From an uncultured virus (IMG/VR IMGVR_UViG_3300035034_001691) (Duplodnaviria; Heunggongvirae; Uroviricota; Caudoviricetes): a DNA stretch of 20,000 nt. Shown piece by piece: positions 1-11,594 of the stretch. The stretch lies in IMG/VR virus record IMGVR_UViG_3300035034_001691. The stretch is one strand, 5' to 3'. Made by a program: the position numbers and the translations under genes. Under the pieces are notes generated by a model. It worked only from the letters and a program-made list of their open reading frames with translations. It had not been told where the DNA came from and searched no databases. Numbering within the stretch: the first letter of the stretch is position 1; each line of letters starts with the position of its first letter.

Positions 1-2211
1 GATGCAGAAGAGCAAGTTAAAGATTTTCCTAATACCTATCTCTACAGTGACGAAGGTGAAATGTTATCTGCATTTCTTGATCTAATAGAAGATGCCGATA
101 TGTTAACTGGTTGGAATAGTGAAGGATATGATATTCCGTATACAGTTAACCGTGTTGCAAGAGTATTAAGTAAGAATGATACTAGAAGATTTTGTTTATG
201 GGATCAACTTCCAAAGAAACGACTCTATGAAAAATACGGTAAAGAAGCAGTAACATTTGATTTAATTGGCAGAGTTCATCTCGATAGTTTAGAATTGTAT
301 CGTAAATATAATTATGAAGAAAGACATTCTTATCGGTTGGATGCTATTGGTGAAATTGAAATAGGTGAAAACAAAACAGTATACGAAGGAACACTTGATC
401 AATTATATAATAATGACTTTAAAAAGTTTATTGAATATAACAGACAAGATACTTCGTTGCTTGATAAACTTGATCGTAAACTTCGCTTTATTGATTTGTC
501 AAACGAACTAGCTCATTCTAATACTGTTTTATTGCAAACTACTATGGGAGCAGTTGCAGTTACCGAACAGGCTATCATAAACGAAGCACATGATAGAGGA
601 ATGGTAGTTCCTAATCGTCCAGTTGTTGACCGAGAGAATTCAAGTGCAGCCGGAGCATATGTTGCTTATCCAAAGAAAGGCTTGCATATGTGGTTAGCAT
701 CAATGGATTTAAATTCACTATATCCATCTGTTATTCGTGCATTGAATATGGCTCCGGAAGCAGTAGTTGGCCAATTACGACCAACCGATACCGATGCTTA
801 TATAAAAGAAAAGATGACTTTTGAGAAGAAGTCTTTTGCAGGAGCATGGGAAGGATTGTTTAGTTCTATTGAATACAAACATATGATAGAAAAAAATAGA
901 GGTAAAGATATTACCATCGATTGGGAGAACGGAGATGTTGATGTACTTAGCGGTGCAGAAACCTACGAACTTATATTCAATAGTAACAATCCTTGGATGA
1001 TTAGTGCTAATGGTACTATTTTTACAAATGAATTCGAAGCTGTCATTCCTGGACTTCTAAAACGTTGGTATTCAGAACGTAAAGAATTACAAGCAAAATT
1101 AAAAAAGGCAATTGATGCCAACAATAAAACCGAAATAGCCTTTTGGGACAAGCGTCAGCTTGTTAAGAAGATTAATTTGAATAGCTTATATGGTGCTATC
1201 TTAAATCCAGGTTGTAGGTTCTTTGATAAAAGAATTGGTCAATCAACTACACTTACTGGTAGAGGAATTGTTCAACATATGAGTGCAAAGGCAAACGAAG
1301 TAATAACAGGAGAATATGACCACGTTGGTAAGGCTGTTATATACGGTGATACCGATTCTGTTTATTTTAGTGCTTATCCTATACTAAAAGACGAAATAGA
1401 CAATGGTACTATTCCTTGGGAAAAGGAACGTATAATTCAGTTATATGATCAAGTAGCAGAAGAAACAAATAAATCATTTACTAGATTTATGGCTGATGCA
1501 TATCATTGTCCTAAATCTCGCTCAGGTGTTATTGCAGCAGGTAGAGAAATTGTTGCACAGAGTGGATTGTATATTACTAAGAAAAGATATGCTGCCCTAG
1601 TAATTGACGACGACGGTAACAGAAAAGATATAGACGGTCAAATTGGTAAGGTTAAAGCAATGGGATTAGATTTGCGGCGATCAGATACTCCGGTTTTTAT
1701 GCAAGACTTCCTTAAGGATATTCTACTTATGGTTTTAACAACAAAAGACGAAAACGAAATTTTAAAAAAGATTGAAGATTTTCGTAGTCTATTTAAGGAA
1801 CGGCCTGGTTGGGAAAAAGGAACTCCCAAACGTGTTAACAACCTAAGTAAATTTCGAGATTTAGAAGAAGAAAAAGGAAAGGCAAATATGCCAGGACACG
1901 TTCGTGCATCACTTAATTGGAATACTTTAAAAAGAATGAATAGTGATCGTTACAGCCAAGACATAGTTGATGGAATGAAAGTTATCGTTTGTAAACTAAG
2001 GCCAAATCCATTAGGATTTACAAGTGTTGCATTTCCAACAGACGAACTACGCTTACCGCAATGGTTTAAGGATTTACCTTTTGATGACAGAGCAATGGAA
2101 AATACTATCATTGATAATAAAATTGATAACTTAATAGGTGTCTTGAATTATGACATCGAATCTACAAAACAAGACACAACATTTGGAAGTTTATTTGATT
2201 TTGGAGATTAA
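1..2211 (+). CDS. polB: Family B DNA polymerase (T4 gp43-like), 5'-truncated; frame is open from base 1
   Basis: ExoII GWNSEGYDIPY, ExoIII YNRQD, polymerase motifs SMDLNSLYPS, KKINLNSLYG, YGDTDS and KKRYA. C-terminal aromatic clamp-binding-like tail TTFGSLFDF. No stop in frame from 1 to 60. Confidence 0.96.
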   Translation, partial: DAEEQVKDFPNTYLYSDEGEMLSAFLDLIEDADMLTGWNSEGYDIPYTVNRVARVLSKNDTRRFCLWDQLPKKRLYEKYGKEAVTFDLIGRVHLDSLELYRKYNYEERHSYRLDAIGEIEIGENKTVYEGTLDQLYNNDFKKFIEYNRQDTSLLDKLDRKLRFIDLSNELAHSNTVLLQTTMGAVAVTEQAIINEAHDRGMVVPNRPVVDRENSSAAGAYVAYPKKGLHMWLASMDLNSLYPSVIRALNMAPEAVVGQLRPTDTDAYIKEKMTFEKKSFAGAWEGLFSSIEYKHMIEKNRGKDITIDWENGDVDVLSGAETYELIFNSNNPWMISANGTIFTNEFEAVIPGLLKRWYSERKELQAKLKKAIDANNKTEIAFWDKRQLVKKINLNSLYGAILNPGCRFFDKRIGQSTTLTGRGIVQHMSAKANEVITGEYDHVGKAVIYGDTDSVYFSAYPILKDEIDNGTIPWEKERIIQLYDQVAEETNKSFTRFMADAYHCPKSRSGVIAAGREIVAQSGLYITKKRYAALVIDDDGNRKDIDGQIGKVKAMGLDLRRSDTPVFMQDFLKDILLMVLTTKDENEILKKIEDFRSLFKERPGWEKGTPKRVNNLSKFRDLEEEKGKANMPGHVRASLNWNTLKRMNSDRYSQDIVDGMKVIVCKLRPNPLGFTSVAFPTDELRLPQWFKDLPFDDRAMENTIIDNKIDNLIGVLNYDIESTKQDTTFGSLFDFGD

Positions 2212-2228
2212 TCAAAAGATGATTTTTC

Positions 2229-2257
2229 TTGACAATACGAAAAATTCATAGTAATAT
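2229..2257 (+). promoter_or_regulatory. Sigma70-type promoter for the clamp/transglycosylase operon
   Basis: TTGACA 2229-2234, 17-nt spacer, TAATAT 2252-2257 (TATAAT also at 2255-2260). Lies in the intergenic gap upstream of a GGAG RBS and ATG 2280. Confidence 0.7.
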
Positions 2258-2279
2258 AATAAATCATACGGAGAATAAT

Positions 2280-3011
2280 ATGAAAGATATACTTAAAGAT
2301 ATTATAGCGCATACACATTCATTGGGGTTCTTATCCCTAGTTAAGGTGACAAACGAAGAAGACAAGACTAAAATTGAAACTATGTCTGAAGATAGAACAG
2401 TTATACTAATGGCTGCAACTAAAAATAAGGTTGATGAATTTATTGGTACGTTTGGCATGCCAAACTTAGGACTTCTGGCTTTTCATCTAAAAAATCCAGA
2501 ATACGAAAAAGATAGTGTTCTTGAAATTAAGACTGATGTTCGAAAGGGAGAAACTATCAATACACATATTCATTTTGAGAATTCAAATGGTGATTTTGAA
2601 AATGATTATAGATTTATGAATCAAGCTCACATTGAAGAAAAATTAAAGAATGTGAAGTTTAAGGGAGCAACATGGAACGTTGAACTTGAACCCGCTATTG
2701 ATTCTATAAGAAGAATGAAGTTACAGGCTGCTGGAAATCCAGATGAATTAATAGTTAATGTTAAAACCGAAGACGGTGCATTAGTAATGACATTTGGTGA
2801 TGAATCATCACATGCAGGAAAATTTATTTTTCAAAGTAATATAACAGGTGAATTAAAGCACACATGGTCTTGGCCTGTTGCTCAAACCCTTGCTATACTT
2901 AGCTTAGATGGTAAGATAACTATGAGATTATCAGATCAGGGCGCAATGAAGATATCTGTTGATAGCGGATTAGCTACATACGATTATATTCTTCCAGCGC
3001 AGGCTAAATGA
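2280..3011 (+). CDS. Probable DNA polymerase sliding clamp (gp45/PCNA-like)
   Basis: 243 aa from ATG 2280 (GGAG RBS). Size, alternating beta/alpha pattern, C-terminal YDYILPAQ strand and position directly after polB fit a phage clamp. No catalytic motif to confirm. Confidence 0.6.
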   Translation: MKDILKDIIAHTHSLGFLSLVKVTNEEDKTKIETMSEDRTVILMAATKNKVDEFIGTFGMPNLGLLAFHLKNPEYEKDSVLEIKTDVRKGETINTHIHFENSNGDFENDYRFMNQAHIEEKLKNVKFKGATWNVELEPAIDSIRRMKLQAAGNPDELIVNVKTEDGALVMTFGDESSHAGKFIFQSNITGELKHTWSWPVAQTLAILSLDGKITMRLSDQGAMKISVDSGLATYDYILPAQAK

Positions 3012-4606
3012 TTAACAGAGATTTAACCTCAACACAAAACGATTATGCGTTTTTTCTTCCTGCATTAAGTGGTTTCTATGCCACTTATGTAGGTAAACAA
3101 CGCTTTGGTGAATATGTAGATAAGACTCGTATACCTTCTAATTTTAACAACGGAGTTGAAAGTCTCAATTACCTAAATAAAAAAGAAGGAGCATTTCATT
3201 ACAAATGGTCACTTTATTCAGCAGGACATGCTGAATTAGATGTTAATAAGGATTCACCTAAAGAAGATATGATCCGAAATAGAGATCGTGAAAATTCTTG
3301 GGTACTTGGTGACAGTGGTGGTTTCCAGATTGGTAAGGGAGTGTGGGAAGGCAATTGGAAGGATCCAAGTTGTCCTAAAGCAATGAAGAAAAGAACAGAT
3401 GTTCTTAGTTGGATGGACAAATATATGGATTACGGAATGATATTAGATATTCCGGCCTGGGTAGCTCGTTCACCTGCAGGTGCAGCGGCAACAGGTATTA
3501 ATTCATATCAAGGAGCAGTTGACGCTACTAGAATTAATAATGATTATTTTATTAAGAATAGAAATGGTAATTGTAAATTTCTAAACGTTCTGCAGGGTGA
3601 AACATTTCAAGAAGCCGACGATTGGTATTTTCAGATGCGTGATTTTTGTGATCCAAAGAAATATCCAAATGAACATTTTGAAGGATGGTCAATGGGTGGA
3701 CAAAATATGTGTGATGTCCACCTTGTGTTAAAGCGTTTGATTGCACTTCGTTTTGATGGATATTTAGAAAAGGGTGTTCATGATTTTATGCACTTTTTGG
3801 GTACTTCAAAATTAGAATGGGCATGTTTGTTAACAGATATACAGCGTGCAGTTCGAAAACATCATAATGAAAATTATACAATAACATTTGATTGTGCAAG
3901 TCCTTTCTTAGCTACTGCTAATGGACAAATTTATTTACAGACTGAAACAGAACCTATGGGTAAATGGACATATCGAATGTTACCAAGTATTGATAACAAA
4001 AAATATGCAACTGATCCTCGTGGATTTCGTGATACTGTTTTACAAGATGGTATTTTTGATAAGAAAGATTCAGCCGGCAATGTATTAATAACTAGAGACT
4101 TCGTTGATTCTCCTATAACAGATGGATTAGGGGTATCAGACGTGTGTATCTATAAGCCGGGAGACCTAAATAAAATAGGTAAAGAAGGAAGAACTTCTTG
4201 GGACAGCTTTTCATATGCTATACAAATGGGACATAATGTTTGGTCTCATATCAATGCAGTACAGGAAGCTAATAGAATGTGTGATTCTGGTACATTTCCA
4301 CATATGCTAATTGCTTCGAAATTACACGGAAAGAAGTTTCGAACTTATAAGAGAGAATTTTTTCGTGATATAGTTGAAGATATTTTTGCTACAGACGACA
4401 GAGAAAAGGCAGAAGCGTTAGTTGAAGAGCATCGTGCATATTGGATGGATATTCCTGGTACACGAGGTGCAATTGGTAAGAAGACCATTAACTCAACAAC
4501 ATTTTTTCATAGTCTTTTTGAAGAAGAAGAAACTGTTACACAAGAAGAAACCTTCACAGAAGAAAATGAAGAGTTATTGGAGAAATTAGAGAATGACCTT
4601 GACTAA
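3008..4606 (+). CDS. dpdA: tRNA-guanine transglycosylase-fold protein, DpdA-like 7-deazaguanine insertion enzyme
   Basis: TGT motifs in the expected order: DSGGFQ, MILDIP, VLQG, SMGG, HFLG, TFDCASP. Lacks the C-terminal CxCxxC Zn site of bacterial Tgt. Clustered with folE and queE. ATGA overlap with the clamp gene. Confidence 0.82.
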   Translation: MINRDLTSTQNDYAFFLPALSGFYATYVGKQRFGEYVDKTRIPSNFNNGVESLNYLNKKEGAFHYKWSLYSAGHAELDVNKDSPKEDMIRNRDRENSWVLGDSGGFQIGKGVWEGNWKDPSCPKAMKKRTDVLSWMDKYMDYGMILDIPAWVARSPAGAAATGINSYQGAVDATRINNDYFIKNRNGNCKFLNVLQGETFQEADDWYFQMRDFCDPKKYPNEHFEGWSMGGQNMCDVHLVLKRLIALRFDGYLEKGVHDFMHFLGTSKLEWACLLTDIQRAVRKHHNENYTITFDCASPFLATANGQIYLQTETEPMGKWTYRMLPSIDNKKYATDPRGFRDTVLQDGIFDKKDSAGNVLITRDFVDSPITDGLGVSDVCIYKPGDLNKIGKEGRTSWDSFSYAIQMGHNVWSHINAVQEANRMCDSGTFPHMLIASKLHGKKFRTYKREFFRDIVEDIFATDDREKAEALVEEHRAYWMDIPGTRGAIGKKTINSTTFFHSLFEEEETVTQEETFTEENEELLEKLENDLD

Positions 4607-5727: not shown

Positions 5728-5905
5728 ACTCGAACGGATATTTGATGATTTAGATCAATTCCGAGATTATTGTCGTTTTAATGGCAAGGTTTTTAATGAG
5801 GCAGATCTTTATAAGAATTCTAGTGATAGTTGGAGAGCATACCAGGTTTATACTAGAAGCAAAGGTAGACCACGGCAAACAAGAGATAATAGGTACAAGA
5901 GATGA
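5717..5905 (+). CDS. Small hypothetical phage protein
   Basis: ATG 5717 after AAGGA; MKIELERIFDDLDQFRDYCRF...; basic C-terminus; ATGA overlap with the glycosyltransferase gene. Confidence 0.65.
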   Translation: MKIELERIFDDLDQFRDYCRFNGKVFNEADLYKNSSDSWRAYQVYTRSKGRPRQTRDNRYKR

Positions 5906-6996
5906 CCATTTATATTGTAGATATTGAGGCGGTTGATAATCGCTATACTAAACAATGGAAAGAGTATCTTCCAAAGCAAATACAAAAGAGAACAACTGAA
6001 GAAGTAGTTGTAATCTCTGGAGGAGATGTTCCTCAATCTACAACGCCAGGTGCCTTTTTAAACTTTGGCGGAACTAATATCTACAAAAGCAATCAGTTAA
6101 TGCAAATTGGTGAATTGTTTTGTAATGGTCAAATAAAGAATAATGATTATTTCTTGTACACTGATGCATGGAATCCAACCGTTATACAATTAAAGTATAT
6201 GGCTTCCTTGCTAGGAATACACATTAAAATTGGTGGGATGTGGCATGCAGGAAGTTATGATCCACAAGATTTCCTTGGTCGATTAATTGGTGACCAACCC
6301 TGGATTCGTTCTGCTGAACATTCAATGTTCAGCAGTTACGATCATAACTTCTTTGCAACCGATTACCATATCCAAATGTTTTCTAATGGAATATTTGGAT
6401 GGGATAATGGTAAAGGATGGGATATAACTGATCCTAAATTAGCAAATGACACTATTGTTCGTGCAGGATGGCCGATGGAATATCTATCAGGATCATTAAC
6501 ACAATATAAAGGAATGCCAAAAGAAAATTTAATTCTTTTCCCCCATCGCATTGCACCCGAAAAACAAGTTGAGATCTTTCGTGATCTCAAACAGCATATG
6601 CCAGAATATGAGTTTATTGTTTGTCAAGATCAAACTCTTACAAAGAACGAATATTATAATCTCTTAGGAAGAGCTAAAATAGTTTTTTCTGCTAACCTAC
6701 AAGAAACACTAGGCATAAGTTGGTATGAAGGACTTCAAGTTAATTGTATTCCAATGGTACCAAATCGTCTTTCATACACTGAAATGGCAATATATGATTT
6801 TAAATATCCTTCTAATTGGACTTCTAGTTTTGACAATTATATAGAAAATCAAGAACTGATTAAAAATCAAATTAAAGAATATATAGAGAATTATTCTACA
6901 TACATTCCTAAAATTGCAATTCAATGTAGGATGTTAGAGCAAGAATTCTTTAATGGAGATAGAATTTACGAGGTAATAAATGAATTCGAGCGATAA
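5902..6996 (+). CDS. GT-B (GT4-like) glycosyltransferase, GTDC1/DUF3524-like
   Basis: FPHRIAPEK donor-binding motif, Ex7E motif QETLGISWYEG, then CIPMVPNRLSYTEM. Confidence 0.85.
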   Translation: MTIYIVDIEAVDNRYTKQWKEYLPKQIQKRTTEEVVVISGGDVPQSTTPGAFLNFGGTNIYKSNQLMQIGELFCNGQIKNNDYFLYTDAWNPTVIQLKYMASLLGIHIKIGGMWHAGSYDPQDFLGRLIGDQPWIRSAEHSMFSSYDHNFFATDYHIQMFSNGIFGWDNGKGWDITDPKLANDTIVRAGWPMEYLSGSLTQYKGMPKENLILFPHRIAPEKQVEIFRDLKQHMPEYEFIVCQDQTLTKNEYYNLLGRAKIVFSANLQETLGISWYEGLQVNCIPMVPNRLSYTEMAIYDFKYPSNWTSSFDNYIENQELIKNQIKEYIENYSTYIPKIAIQCRMLEQEFFNGDRIYEVINEFER

Positions 6997-7294: not shown

Positions 7295-7623
7295 TGGGAT
7301 TAACAATTAATCCAATAGCAAGTTCGGGAACAAAAATATCTGATACTATTCGTAATAACTTTGATTCTATTCCAGAAGTGAGAATTAATGGTAATATAAG
7401 ATGTGATAGAATAGACGCTGATGTACTCTTTTCATCATATCTATCTACAGCAAATATAGAAAACGTAGATGAAGCTATACGCAATTTGCAAGAACGACTA
7501 TTAATAGTTGAAAGAGATCTTGTAATGGAAGAAAAGTACCCCGAACTTAAAAGAGCAGGTACTCGGTATGTTGAAATTAAAAACAAATACGAAACATTGG
7601 AGATTATCAAAGGTGAAAAATAA
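7294..7623 (+). CDS. Hypothetical protein
   Basis: 109-aa ORF, TAATG coupling, GAGGTG RBS; C-terminal coiled coil with MEEKYPEL. Confidence 0.6.
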   Translation: MGLTINPIASSGTKISDTIRNNFDSIPEVRINGNIRCDRIDADVLFSSYLSTANIENVDEAIRNLQERLLIVERDLVMEEKYPELKRAGTRYVEIKNKYETLEIIKGEK

Positions 7624-8110
7624 ACAATATTATGACTGGAACGACGTTGACGATGCTTGTAACACTTTTCTCAAACAAATGTTACGAGATGAATGGAAAC
7701 CTGATTATATTGTTGGTATAACAAGGGGTGGACTTACACTCGCAGTTATGTTGTCTCATATTATCCAAATTCCGTGTCACACTCTTAATGTTAGCCTTAG
7801 AAGTAATCCAGACGACGTTGAATCAAATCTTTGGATGGCAGAAGATGCGTTTAATGGAAAAAAAATACTTATAGTAGATGACATAAACGATAAAGGTGCT
7901 ACTTTTGAATGGATACAAAAAGATTGGAATTCTTCGTGTTGTCCACTTGACGGTAAATGGACCGATGGAACTATATGGGGTGGAAACGTTCGTTTTGCAG
8001 TAATGACCGATAACATATCAAGTGGATTTGGTTCTGTTAATTATGTATTTGAAGAGATTGATAAGAACGAAGAAAACGTTTGGTTAGTTTATCCTTGGGA
8101 GTCTGAATAA
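7613..8110 (+). CDS. Type I purine phosphoribosyltransferase (Gpt/xanthine-guanine PRT-like)
   Basis: IVGITRGGL PPi loop, PRPP-binding ILIVDDINDKGAT, C-terminal WLVYPWE typical of Gpt-like PRTases. Likely GTG start at 7613 after GGAG. Confidence 0.88.
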   Translation: MKNKQYYDWNDVDDACNTFLKQMLRDEWKPDYIVGITRGGLTLAVMLSHIIQIPCHTLNVSLRSNPDDVESNLWMAEDAFNGKKILIVDDINDKGATFEWIQKDWNSSCCPLDGKWTDGTIWGGNVRFAVMTDNISSGFGSVNYVFEEIDKNEENVWLVYPWESE

Positions 8111-8444: not shown

Positions 8445-9131
8445 TTGACTATCTCTAATATTATTAAGAATAGAATTTTAAAAGAAGGTAATACATATTG
8501 GGCTGGAGATAATATCAGCCAACATATTCAAGAAGGTGAGCTAGAAGAATTAACTGACGAGCTCACAGAAAAATTTGAAGCAGTGCTTGACTCGCTTGTT
8601 ATAGATCGATTAAATGATCCTAATAGCAAGGACACAGGTAGAAGACTAGCGAAAATGTATATACACGAATTAATGCGTGGAAGATATTATCCAATGCCAG
8701 ATGCAACTTCGTTCCCAAACGAAGTCGAAGATGGTTATACAGGAATGTTGGTGGTGCGAAGTGAAATTAAATCAGTTTGCTCGCATCACCATCAACCTGT
8801 TACAGGTGTTGCTTACATTGGAATTATTGCTGCAGAAACATTGATAGGACTCAGCAAATATACAAGAATTGCACAATGGTGTGCAAGACGTGGTACATTA
8901 CAAGAAGAATTATGTAATGATATTGCAAAAGAAATAATTTCTGCAACAGGCAGCAATGATGTCGGAGTTTACATACAAGCAACTCACGGATGTTGCGAAA
9001 ACAGAGGCATAATGGCACATTCTAGTTTGACACAGACTACTGTGCTAAAAGGTGCATTTAAACATGATCCTGCCACAAAGCAAGAATTCTTTGATAACAT
9101 CAAACTACAACAACAGTGGGCACCAAGATGA
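8445..9131 (+). CDS. folE: GTP cyclohydrolase I
   Basis: DPNSKDTGRRLAKMY, SVCSHHHQP (Zn Cys/His), IGLSKYTR, LQEEL, HGCCENRG. TTG start after AGGA. Confidence 0.95.
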   Translation: MTISNIIKNRILKEGNTYWAGDNISQHIQEGELEELTDELTEKFEAVLDSLVIDRLNDPNSKDTGRRLAKMYIHELMRGRYYPMPDATSFPNEVEDGYTGMLVVRSEIKSVCSHHHQPVTGVAYIGIIAAETLIGLSKYTRIAQWCARRGTLQEELCNDIAKEIISATGSNDVGVYIQATHGCCENRGIMAHSSLTQTTVLKGAFKHDPATKQEFFDNIKLQQQWAPR

Positions 9132-9997
9132 AATTAAGATATAGCGAAGCATTTTATTCTATACAAGGTGAAGGTAAGTTTGTTGGAGTGCCTAGTGTAT
9201 TTCTTCGAACTTTTGGTTGCAATTTTCGATGCAAGAAATTTGGTCTTCCTAAAGATCAAGAAGTTGGAAAATATAATCCAGAAGTAGAACAACTTCTAGA
9301 GAATGGTATTGACCAATATGAAAAATTTGAAGACCTTCCGATTATACACACAGGATGTGACACTTATGCTAGTATCTATCCTGAATTTAAACGTTTTATG
9401 AAAAATGAAACAGTAAACGACGTAGTTGATAATTTATTGAAATTAACTCCAACCGGCAAATGGTCTTTAGATAATGGACAAGATATACATTTTATTTTAA
9501 CAGGCGGTGAACCTTTGCTTGGTTGGCAAAAATTGTATGTTGAGTTGTTTAACCATCCTAACATGAAGGATCTAAAAAATGTTACTTTCGAGACTAACAC
9601 TACACAACATCTTCAATCAAATCTTAAAGAGTTCTTCGGATATCAAGACCACATACGAATTACGTTCTCATGTTCGCCTAAGCTCACAGTTAGCGGCGAA
9701 TCTTGGAATGCTGCAATACAGCCTGATATTGCTCGTCAATACTTTGATGTTCCTAATAGCGACATGTATTTTAAGTTTGTTGTCGCTAATGACGATGATG
9801 TGGAAGATGTTCGTCGTGCTGTTGATGCTTACCGCAAAGCCGGTATTAATTGTCCTGTCTACCTTATGCCGCTGGGTGGAAGAAGTGAAGAATATTATCT
9901 CAATAAAGATAGAATCGTTGAAATTGCGATGCAAGAAGGTTGGAGATATACCCCAAGGCTCCATGTCGAAGTCTTCGGAAACGCATGGGGAACATGA
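9128..9997 (+). CDS. queE: 7-carboxy-7-deazaguanine synthase (radical SAM)
   Basis: EAFYSIQGEG, VFLRTFGCNFRC...GCDT, LTGGEP, FETN, SCSPKL, YFKFVV, PRLH. ATG 9128 overlaps the folE stop (ATGA). Confidence 0.93.
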   Translation: MKLRYSEAFYSIQGEGKFVGVPSVFLRTFGCNFRCKKFGLPKDQEVGKYNPEVEQLLENGIDQYEKFEDLPIIHTGCDTYASIYPEFKRFMKNETVNDVVDNLLKLTPTGKWSLDNGQDIHFILTGGEPLLGWQKLYVELFNHPNMKDLKNVTFETNTTQHLQSNLKEFFGYQDHIRITFSCSPKLTVSGESWNAAIQPDIARQYFDVPNSDMYFKFVVANDDDVEDVRRAVDAYRKAGINCPVYLMPLGGRSEEYYLNKDRIVEIAMQEGWRYTPRLHVEVFGNAWGT

Positions 9998-10210: not shown

Positions 10211-10587
10211 AATGGTTACGCAAAATCTTTGGCAGTGAAGAAGTCAAAGGTATAAAGACAGAGGAAGATATAAGGCGAGAAGCTTTAGCTAAAGAAAAAG
10301 AAACCGCTACAAAAAAAGGCGAAGCTTGGGTAGCTGTTTTAGACACGCACGTAAATCCACACGACATTAAGAATGGATTTTTTGAACTTGACTGGAATAA
10401 CGAATTTATTGAGCAATTGGTAGATGCCGGTTATAACGGAGAATCAAATGAAGAAATCATCAACGCTTGGTTTGTTACATTGATAACTCAAATGTTAGAA
10501 GAAGAAGGTCTCAACGATACTCCGAGAGATGCAGGATATATTAAAATAGTACCAAGTAGTAGAAAAGGCAGAAGCGAAATTTCATGA
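10207..10587 (+). CDS. Hypothetical phage protein
   Basis: 126 aa, coupled on both sides by ATGA overlaps; motif GFFELDWNNEFI. Confidence 0.75.
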   Translation: MKWLRKIFGSEEVKGIKTEEDIRREALAKEKETATKKGEAWVAVLDTHVNPHDIKNGFFELDWNNEFIEQLVDAGYNGESNEEIINAWFVTLITQMLEEEGLNDTPRDAGYIKIVPSSRKGRSEIS

Positions 10588-11594
10588 CTTATATTATAGT
10601 AGATACCGCCAACTTATTCTTTCGCGCTCGACATGTTGTTAGGGGTGATTTAGATACAAAAATAGGTATGTGTTTTCATATTACCCTCAATGCTATAAGA
10701 AAAGCATGGAAGGATTTTGATGGGAAACATGTGGTCTTTTGTTTAGAAGGTCGATCTTGGCGAAAGGATTATTACGAACCTTATAAAAAGAATAGATCAG
10801 AAGATAGAGCAGCTATGTCTGCAAAGGAACAAGAAGAAGAAAAACTCTTCTGGGAAGTGTTTGATGAGTTTAAAGATTTTATAAACGAAAAGACAAACTG
10901 TACTGTTTTGAGACATCCTAATTTAGAAGCTGATGATCTTATTGCAGGATGGATTCGTGCTCATCCTGATGATAACCATGTTGTACTTTCTACCGATGGT
11001 GATTTTGCTCAATTGATATCCCCTACTGTATCACAATACAATGGTGTTACGAATACTACCATTACACACGAAGGATATTTTGACGATAAAGGCAAGCCTA
11101 TAATCGATAAAAAAACTAAAAAAGAAAAGCCTGCACCTAATCCTAACTGGTTGTTATTTGAAAAGTGCATACGTGGCGACAAGAGTGATAATGTGTTCCC
11201 TGCTTATCCCGGCGCACGAAAAAAGGGTACTGCAAAAAAGGTTGGAATGTTAGAAGCTTTTGAAGACAAAAATACAAAAGGATATAACTGGAACAATTTC
11301 ATGTTGCAACGCTGGACTGATCATAACGATGTAGAACATAGAGTTATAGACGATTATAAAAGAAACGTTGAACTTTGTGATCTTACTGCACAACCGGATC
11401 ATGTACAAGAAATGATAAACGAAACTATCAGCGAATCTACTAATAATCCAAAGGATGTTAGTCAAGTTGGTATATTATTGGCAAAATTTTGTGCCAAATG
11501 GGATCTTCGTCGCGTTAGTGATAACATCCTTACATATAATGAACAATATAGTTCGAGGTATTTAAATGACAATAAATGCAAAATCTCTGCTTAA
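10584..11594 (+). CDS. rnh: T4 RNase H-like / FEN-family 5'-3' exonuclease
   Basis: IIVDTANLFFR, RKDYYEPYKKNR, LEADDLIA, LSTDGDFAQL and GDKSDNV: the acidic metal-binding motifs of the 5' nuclease family. Confidence 0.9.
   Translation: MTYIIVDTANLFFRARHVVRGDLDTKIGMCFHITLNAIRKAWKDFDGKHVVFCLEGRSWRKDYYEPYKKNRSEDRAAMSAKEQEEEKLFWEVFDEFKDFINEKTNCTVLRHPNLEADDLIAGWIRAHPDDNHVVLSTDGDFAQLISPTVSQYNGVTNTTITHEGYFDDKGKPIIDKKTKKEKPAPNPNWLLFEKCIRGDKSDNVFPAYPGARKKGTAKKVGMLEAFEDKNTKGYNWNNFMLQRWTDHNDVEHRVIDDYKRNVELCDLTAQPDHVQEMINETISESTNNPKDVSQVGILLAKFCAKWDLRRVSDNILTYNEQYSSRYLNDNKCKISA

Follow-up and report, generated by a model that had tools for sequence, protein, structure and literature searches.

How does a phage enzyme that exchanges guanine for a deazaguanine base reach the DNA of its phage, and does it act while this DNA is being copied? 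This question is raised by the virus record IMGVR_UViG_3300035034_001691 of IMG/VR, an uncultured member of the Caudoviricetes, of which a stretch of 20,000 nucleotides was analyzed (the window, which is one end of a 76-kb contig). The window contains a portion of the replication module of an uncultured jumbo phage that is a relative of PA5oct. On the plus strand of this module, the gene of a family-B DNA polymerase (PolB) is followed by that of a PCNA-type sliding clamp, by that of a DNA transglycosylase of the DpdA3 kind (dpdA), and then by genes for the synthesis of 7-deazaguanine bases. A previous reading of the letters without database searches—the sequence-only reading—had proposed that polymerase and transglycosylase share a C-terminal peptide that docks on the clamp encoded between them. 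According to the analysis described here, the transglycosylase probably docks on the phage clamp and modifies the DNA as it is copied. For DpdA3 phages, measurements gave complete (100%) G replacement, and 0.1 to 30% were found for the other DpdA kinds; phage 7-deazaguanine modification is described as post-replicative, and how DpdA3 reaches 100% replacement is left as an open point in the accessible part of that study (PMC10516641).

Both peptides are found where the sequence-only reading had placed them. Direct translation of positions 2173–2211 yields DTTFGSLFDFGD and a stop codon, and hence the terminus of PolB, whose open reading frame (ORF) comprises 898 codons from stop to stop in the contig. 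Positions 4496–4522 translate to TTFFHSLFE, residues 497–505 of the 532-residue transglycosylase, and the highly acidic tail claimed for this protein is likewise real: among the 28 residues following Phe504, which include the Glu that ends TTFFHSLFE, 14 are acidic and one is basic. This peptide is not a canonical PCNA-interacting-peptide (PIP) box (Qxxhxxaa), as it lacks the Gln and follows the pattern aromatic-x-x-Leu-Phe-acidic; the PIP box consensus bears Q at position 1, an aliphatic residue at 4, and two aromatic residues at 7–8 (PMC3012046).

In the AlphaFold 2 (AF2) model of the transglycosylase, the catalytic fold ends near residue 480. From residue 481 onward, the ten-residue means of the predicted local distance difference test (pLDDT) are 61, 49, 59, 55, 73, and 43, with values below 50 at residues 488–496 and 509–516. 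The motif appears as a one-turn helix at residues 500–503, and a second helix is modeled for residues 518–531. Given the low pLDDT beyond the end of the fold, the motif is a short element in a flexible tail outside the catalytic body. The second helix is acidic and amphipathic, and it is a conserved element itself: in an alignment of 69 sequences, L527 is invariant and L524, E525, and E528 are nearly invariant. Similar acidic-helix endings are present in PA5oct and several other lineages with acidic tails, and are absent where the LF motif forms the C-terminus.

On the level of single residues, the 69 aligned homologues share F504 without exception and retain F500 and L503 to at least 90%, with a variable linker after them. 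The consensus put forward by the sequence-only reading, T-x-F-x-S-L-F-[DE], holds for its core F-x-x-[LM]-F with the acidic residue that follows; its T and S vary. Two samples of tails were compared with shuffled sequences. A search of proteins that each represent a 50%-identity cluster (cluster REPRESENTATIVES) yielded 968 proteins at E ≤ 0.001; the best 150 were taken, 99 of them with at least 400 residues. Of these 99 full-length representatives, 21 bear F..[LM]F in the last 60 residues, compared with 1.8 ± 1.3 after shuffling (none of 1000 shuffles reached 21), and the motif is about 28 times as frequent in the tails as in the protein bodies; [LM]F within the last six residues is found in 28 of the 99. 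The second sample comprises 172 phage loci (numbered with L), PA5oct included, 164 of which have a complete DpdA C-terminus. Here, F..[LM]F lies within the final 80 residues at 117 of 164 loci (4.8 ± 2.1 expected and at most 12 observed in 500 composition-preserving shuffles) and in 82 of the 119 distinct tails (3.4 ± 1.9, at most 10 in 500). A permissive motif definition raises the positives to 139 of 164 loci, at a high chance rate, since any [LM]F is found in about 32 of 99 shuffled tails. At a few loci, the motif is altered: Asn replaces Leu in L094, and a few others show F..HF, F..LY, or F..IF. Locus scans with the distant family members P0283, P0256, and P0333 found no viral contigs.

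The position of the motif differs among lineages, as a docking peptide would be expected to do. An acidic tail follows it in the window and PA5oct; in L027, L073, L087, the L088–L096 clade, Vibrio phage 2.275.O, and the L126 and L163 types, it forms the very C-terminus. The conservation in DpdA and PolB homologues that the clamp-docking proposal demanded extends to about 31 to 37% identity, with PA5oct and Vibrio phage 2.275.O as clear cases and Sinorhizobium phage Phosso as a weak one.

The tails of PolB and of the DpdA-like proteins clearly share one class of peptide. In the window, PolB ends in TTFGSLFDFGD and the transglycosylase carries TTFFHSLFEEEE ahead of further residues; in PA5oct, PolB ends in HFDSLFGW, with SFNSLFDVD and further residues in the transglycosylase. 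The two proteins of Vibrio phage 2.275.O terminate in NNTDLFDW (PolB) and NNNDLFGW (DpdA-like), those of L087 in NSMFSF and HNLFDF. For the L088–L096 clade, TTFxDLFDF in PolB is paired with xNLFDF[x] or STFDSLFD, and for Phosso, TTFNDLFTF is paired with a weak IVEGLF. A co-variation of both tails at the residue level within a phage is suggested by the pairs of Vibrio phage 2.275.O and L087, and the pair of Phosso is discordant. The PolB tail itself is widespread: [LMF]F lies inside the last seven residues in 144 of the 155 related loci with a readable PolB end. PA5oct polB (L001:1614-6840) is split into two pieces by a gene whose annotation is that of a putative Hef-like homing endonuclease, and polB of L089 (754-5093) is likewise found in two ORFs about 1 kb apart; in both, the clamp-type tail stays with the C-terminal piece, which is EST35_0313 in PA5oct.

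Such peptides are rare in other proteins of these phages. Among the 280 contig ORFs of at least 60 residues from stop to stop (40,154 residues), [ST].F..[LFM]F[DE] is found in PolB and the DpdA-like protein only, and the 76-kb contig contains three instances of the looser F..LF[DE]. This rarity within the contig is weak on its own; the weight comes from conservation. Across 91 related loci, F..[LM]F.{0,5} terminates 72 of the 3145 ORFs that have 80 or more residues. Among the 40 of these 72 matches listed, 34 are PolB, four are DpdA-like proteins, one is an antisense ORF, and one is an HNH endonuclease; the other 32 have 850 to 949 residues, the length class of PolB. In the whole PA5oct genome, two of 602 ORFs end in this way, PolB and one of 87 codons.

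The search for further clamp clients in the 76-kb contig found no candidates. The FEN/RNase H-like gene lacks such a C-terminal tail, and the third F..LF[DE] of the contig lies at residue 129 of a 264-codon ORF, about 3.3 to 4.1 kb upstream of window position 1 (G000:C1); being internal, it is probably not a tail epitope. Two related occurrences were seen in other phages. In L013 (7601-8011), an HNH-type endonuclease ORF of 136 residues, located between a 176-residue gene and a DpdL-like gene, ends in NFNNLFELV—a PolB-like tail that may be due to chance or may mean that a homing endonuclease also uses the clamp. In Vibrio phage 2.275.O, NVP2275O_469 (L083:9723-10835) directly follows dpdA and begins with MFNELFDFND, an N-terminal copy of the motif type. 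A homology of NVP2275O_469 to the neighboring 364-residue protein of the window was considered and dropped (E 0.56).

A docking peptide requires a partner, and the gene between polB and dpdA had been named as a probable clamp gene. Its product is predicted with confidence to adopt the two-domain clamp fold of about 240 residues, and a fold search places it closest to PCNAs. The gene boundaries are exact on translation: the start ATG at 2280 is backed by homologues, and the stop codon TGA (3009–3011) overlaps the ATG of dpdA (3008–3010) as ATGA. The clamp homologue of PA5oct, EST35_0314 (L001:6921-7667), is annotated as a "structural protein" from electrospray ionization tandem mass spectrometry (ESI-MS/MS), which means either a presence of the clamp in virion preparations or contamination.

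The order polB–clamp–dpdA is found in 76 of 80 diverse loci—the other four showed no PolB or clamp within the stretch fetched—and also in PA5oct, Vibrio phage 2.275.O, L087, and L088–L097; it recurs down to about 31% identity. Motif-bearing dpdA genes start at a median of 15 nt past the clamp stop codon, and 125 of 137 do so within 600 nt. Of 21 dpdA genes without the motif, nine are separated from the clamp gene by more than 1.5 kb. In Phosso, dpdA adjoins the genes of the primase and of a DnaB-like helicase and is located far away from that of the clamp.

The assignment of the 532-residue protein as a transglycosylase rests on fold and motifs, because matches at the sequence level are missing: no usable match was obtained in Pfam, PHROGs, NCBIfam, or PDB sequences (phmmer, family profile), and the Pfam family of the tRNA-guanine transglycosylases (TGT; PF01702) does not match the window protein and matches three of 97 family members, with a best E of 0.011. 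The model confidently predicts a TIM-barrel fold of the TGT type, the matching part being residues 13–436. In an alignment of the 97 sequences, which spans down to about 26% identity, S71, D102, S103, G105 (in GDSGGFQ), D147, P149, H262, G265, and D295 are invariant. D102, D147, and D295 are the only three invariant aspartates, and their order—sequence order alone being compared—is that expected for a TGT/DpdA active site. Three aspartates are invariant in TGT and DpdA and serve as general acid/base, in base recognition, and as nucleophile; in DpdA of S. Montevideo, these are Asp95, Asp130, and Asp256 (PMC10164549).

A link to characterized families is provided by PA5oct, whose locus encoding QCG76197.1 is 37% identical over query residues 2–426 (tblastn, E 7e-80). 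QCG76197.1 is named as DpdA3 and QCG76199.1 as DpdL in Supplementary Data S1 of Cui, Hutinet et al., NAR 2023, where PA5oct is listed with FolE, QueD, QueE, and DpdL as well; DpdL is a predicted 7-carboxy-7-deazaguanine decarboxylase (PMC10516641). QCG76199.1 (EST35_0318) resembles the 144-residue ORF of the window, as judged by eye from the translations. The window shares with this DpdA3 subfamily (PMC10516641) the PA5oct homologue and the deazaguanine genes: FolE, a QueE-like gene, and the likely DpdL counterpart are encoded in it. Such a linkage is present in PA5oct too, and in Vibrio phage 2.275.O with QueF, a QueC-like gene, and FolE. The fold and the published listing of the PA5oct homologue thus bear out the label "DpdA-like" of the sequence-only reading, and the 532-residue protein is a member of the long (about 500 to 600 residues), tail-bearing branch of the loosely defined DpdA3 group. 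How loose this grouping is becomes apparent from Campylobacter phage CP220, in whose genome the family profile did not detect the DpdA3 protein at E values up to 10; hmmsearch over the CP220 ORFs gave a best E of 0.022, and BLAST and a scan for DSGG-type motifs also failed to locate it. The family is very abundant in metagenomes, with 7978 of 8000 candidate proteins at E ≤ 0.001.

Peptides with these properties are known as clamp ligands. The polymerase gp43 of T4 and RB69 docks on the clamp gp45 by its C-terminal peptide (PMC3012046, PMC2988020), and RB69 gp45 was crystallized with this peptide (PDB 1b8h; PMC3012046). The epitopes of gp43, gp55, and gp33 are short and hydrophobic-acidic, sit on divergent flexible linkers, and are interchangeable clamp ligands; the gp55 epitope still works in T4 when made internal (PMC2988020). 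As in these gp45 clients, the peptide described here sits on a poorly conserved, flexible linker and is common to a polymerase and a nonpolymerase protein—a hydrophobic-acidic peptide that is alike in the polymerase and the transglycosylase of one phage—and, in many lineages, it lies at the very C-terminus. The differences are that its carrier is a DNA base-exchange enzyme instead of a polymerase or transcription factor, that the peptide of the window and PA5oct is internal and precedes an acidic tail in which a second helix is conserved, that the clamp is nearest to PCNAs, and that the system is known from sequence.

As the tail has every sequence-level property of a T4-type epitope and the gene is coupled to the clamp gene, clamp docking is the best reading, and we consider it fairly likely that a docking peptide of the T4 type links the base-exchange enzyme to the phage clamp. 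The transglycosylase consists of a folded catalytic body (about residues 1–480) and a flexible C-terminal tail, whose F-x-x-L-F-E peptide, similar in type to the end of the polymerase, would dock on the clamp. As clamps are loaded onto the phage DNA in the course of replication, they would keep the enzyme on newly synthesized duplex, where it would exchange guanine for the deazaguanine base. Such binding would make the modification co-replicative or processive and favor phage DNA.

The nearest precedent is the interaction of the T4 alpha-glucosyltransferase (alpha-GT) with gp45. Reportedly, binding between the two was found by Sommer et al. in 2004. The enzyme co-purifies with gp45, and a modification concomitant with replication has been proposed; promoter strength, and not the gp45 interaction, is reported to set the share of alpha-GT in glucosylation, and a common polymerase-type peptide is not described in the accessible part of that work (PMC13216743). 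Alpha-GT is hence a DNA-modifying enzyme of a phage associated with the phage clamp, as proposed here, but it glucosylates 5-hydroxymethylcytosine already in DNA, whereas the transglycosylase would exchange a whole base. Among eukaryotic proteins, DNMT1 and UNG2 are PCNA-tethered DNA-modifying or base-excision enzymes, which a short clamp-binding peptide within a disordered region brings to replication forks. The logic is the same as here, but they use a canonical PIP box, which the present motif does not fit. Clamp-tethered DNA-modifying enzymes are therefore already known, and the DpdA case appears to be new: no report linking DpdA or deazaguanine to a sliding clamp was found in open-access papers and bioRxiv. 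The word "clamp" is absent from the accessible part of PMC10516641, and a survey of jumbo phages treats clamps and deazaguanine separately in the part accessible (PMC7824862).

Several observations weigh against a clamp tether. The motif of the window lies 28 residues from the C-terminus, unlike classical T4 tails. The counts over loci, such as the 117 of 164, come from interrelated loci and do not represent independent events, and 25 of the 164 loci fail even the permissive motif. In L002–L005, which end in NPITKYNEHIEEV, the motif is missing though dpdA still overlaps the clamp gene. It is missing as well in a clade of at least ten loci with the ending GMDAxN..S.D[IL] and further residues (L134, L135, L147, L148, L152, L160, L167, L168, L170, L191, and L195, plus L165 with a variant ending). 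In this clade, the clamp gene, where seen, is located 2 to 6 kb from dpdA, and PolB retains its LF tail. Given these motif-less loci, the family can do without the tether, should it exist. The residue-by-residue matching of the tails is anecdotal: in Phosso (DLFTF against EGLF) and in the greater part of the L088 clade, the two tails disagree at position −3. Furthermore, the binding of alpha-GT to gp45 is not the main determinant of its glucosylation share, and docking therefore need not explain high levels of modification. Finally, the Leu-Phe ending gives the peptide a likeness to the pentapeptide that binds the bacterial beta clamp.

This last resemblance leads to the possibility that the shared peptide docks on another common partner of PolB and DpdA, like the host beta clamp (DnaN), the clamp loader, a single-strand-binding protein, or the helicase. 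The location of dpdA in Phosso, next to the genes of primase and DnaB-like helicase and remote from that of the clamp, would fit such a partner. However, a phage clamp gene of the PCNA type accompanies PolB at every locus that has it; this gene lies between polB and dpdA in the large majority of the diverse loci, motif-bearing dpdA genes abut it, and in T4-type phages the C-terminal peptide of the polymerase is a clamp ligand. Another partner is hence considered unlikely.

The enzyme might also bind the clamp for a purpose other than modification during replication: it could scan processively on clamps left behind on the DNA, or act as a competitor of the polymerase, thereby regulating replication or a switch to late functions. 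T4 clamps serve late transcription too, the alpha-GT–gp45 interaction is not the main determinant of the modification share, and the conserved acidic helix at residues 518–531 hints at a further partner. For a DNA-modifying enzyme, though, a clamp tether would most simply serve to reach new duplex, and we regard these other uses as improbable, while the present data do not separate them from a modification of the DNA as it is copied.

A partner outside the protein would be dispensable if the tail acted intramolecularly—as an autoinhibitory or DNA-mimicking element whose hydrophobic patch folds back on the body—and its likeness to PolB were convergent. Half of the 28 residues after Phe504 are acidic and two short helices are predicted, as such a role might demand. 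Many lineages, however, carry the motif at the very C-terminus and have no acidic tail, the AF2 model does not dock the tail on the body confidently (pLDDT about 43 to 73), and, in several lineages, the motif goes along with the PolB tail of its own phage, all of which makes this explanation quite unlikely. A chance resemblance of two short hydrophobic-acidic stretches is highly improbable, since F..LF[DE], for which roughly one occurrence is expected in 40,154 residues (a rough estimate from assumed residue frequencies) and three were found, belongs to a motif that is conserved far above shuffles and confined to PolB and DpdA-like proteins.

Beyond the tether itself, a wider proposal can be put forward tentatively, and we would not yet bet on it: DpdA3-type enzymes of jumbo phages might be clients of the replisome, positioned behind the polymerase by a tail of two parts, with F-x-x-L-F binding the clamp, the acidic helix contacting a second partner, and G being replaced during replication.

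The features of the window are collected in the table. G+C amounts to about 33 to 36% over its first 12 kb, and the closest cultured relatives are PA5oct-like Pseudomonas jumbo phages, Sinorhizobium phage Phosso, and Vibrio phage 2.275.O. The gene of the DUF465 protein starts 14 nt before the dpdA stop codon and, hence, appears translationally coupled to dpdA; several small ORFs lie between the transglycosylase ORF and the 144-residue ORF. For the 364-residue protein, the sole hint from Pfam is a very weak match to a glycosyltransferase (PF04577, E 0.12). Its relative in PA5oct, EST35_0317, is encoded directly 3' of the DpdA3 gene (EST35_0316), and a similar gene is present in L013.

Table. 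Coordinates of the genes and C-terminal elements in the window
Feature	Position	Strand	Basis
Family-B DNA polymerase, C-terminal 736 codons; start lies upstream of the window	1..2211	+	Pfam DNA_pol_B E 7.8e-36, phrog_262 E 3.7e-171
PolB C-terminal tail DTTFGSLFDFGD, presumed clamp-docking peptide	2173..2208	+	Direct translation
PCNA/gp45-type sliding clamp, 243 aa	2280..3011	+	Fold; PHROG match to phrog_12062 only
TGT-fold DNA transglycosylase, DpdA3 kind, 532 aa	3008..4606	+	Fold and motifs
TTFFHSLFE, residues 497-505; core F500-x-x-L503-F504 at nt 4505-4519	4496..4522	+	Translation, conservation
Acidic tail, residues 505-532	4520..4603	+	14/28 acidic
Second conserved C-terminal element, acidic amphipathic helix, residues 518-531	4559..4603	+	Model, 69-sequence alignment
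DUF465 protein, 64 aa	4593-4787		Pfam E 2.5e-7
Likely DpdL counterpart, 144 aa	5293..5727	+	phrog_17812 E 1.8e-33; likeness to PA5oct EST35_0318 judged by eye
364-aa protein of no named family	5902-6996	+	42% identical (E 3e-94) to PA5oct EST35_0317
Phosphoribosyltransferase	7568-8110	+	
GTP cyclohydrolase I (FolE)	8445..9131	+	NCBIfam NF006824 E 8.9e-40, under curated cut-off
QueE-like radical-SAM 7-carboxy-7-deazaguanine synthase	9116..9997	+	NCBIfam QueE models E 6.5e-13 to 3.9e-7, all under cut-offs
FEN/RNase H-like nuclease	10584-11594	+	

If the transglycosylase is indeed tethered to the clamp, this would provide a testable mechanism for the efficiency of the modification and its selectivity for phage DNA—with Vibrio phage 2.275.O and PA5oct, whose DNA resists several restriction enzymes (PMC12191111), as cultured systems. 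A base-exchange enzyme would thereby join the short list of phage clamp clients, and the motif could be used as a sequence tag for further modification enzymes that are associated with the replisome. Should DpdA3-type enzymes prove to be replisome clients in general, this would explain both the complete replacement in DpdA3 phages and why only phage DNA is modified, and clamp tethering may then be a general device of the base-hypermodification enzymes of phages.

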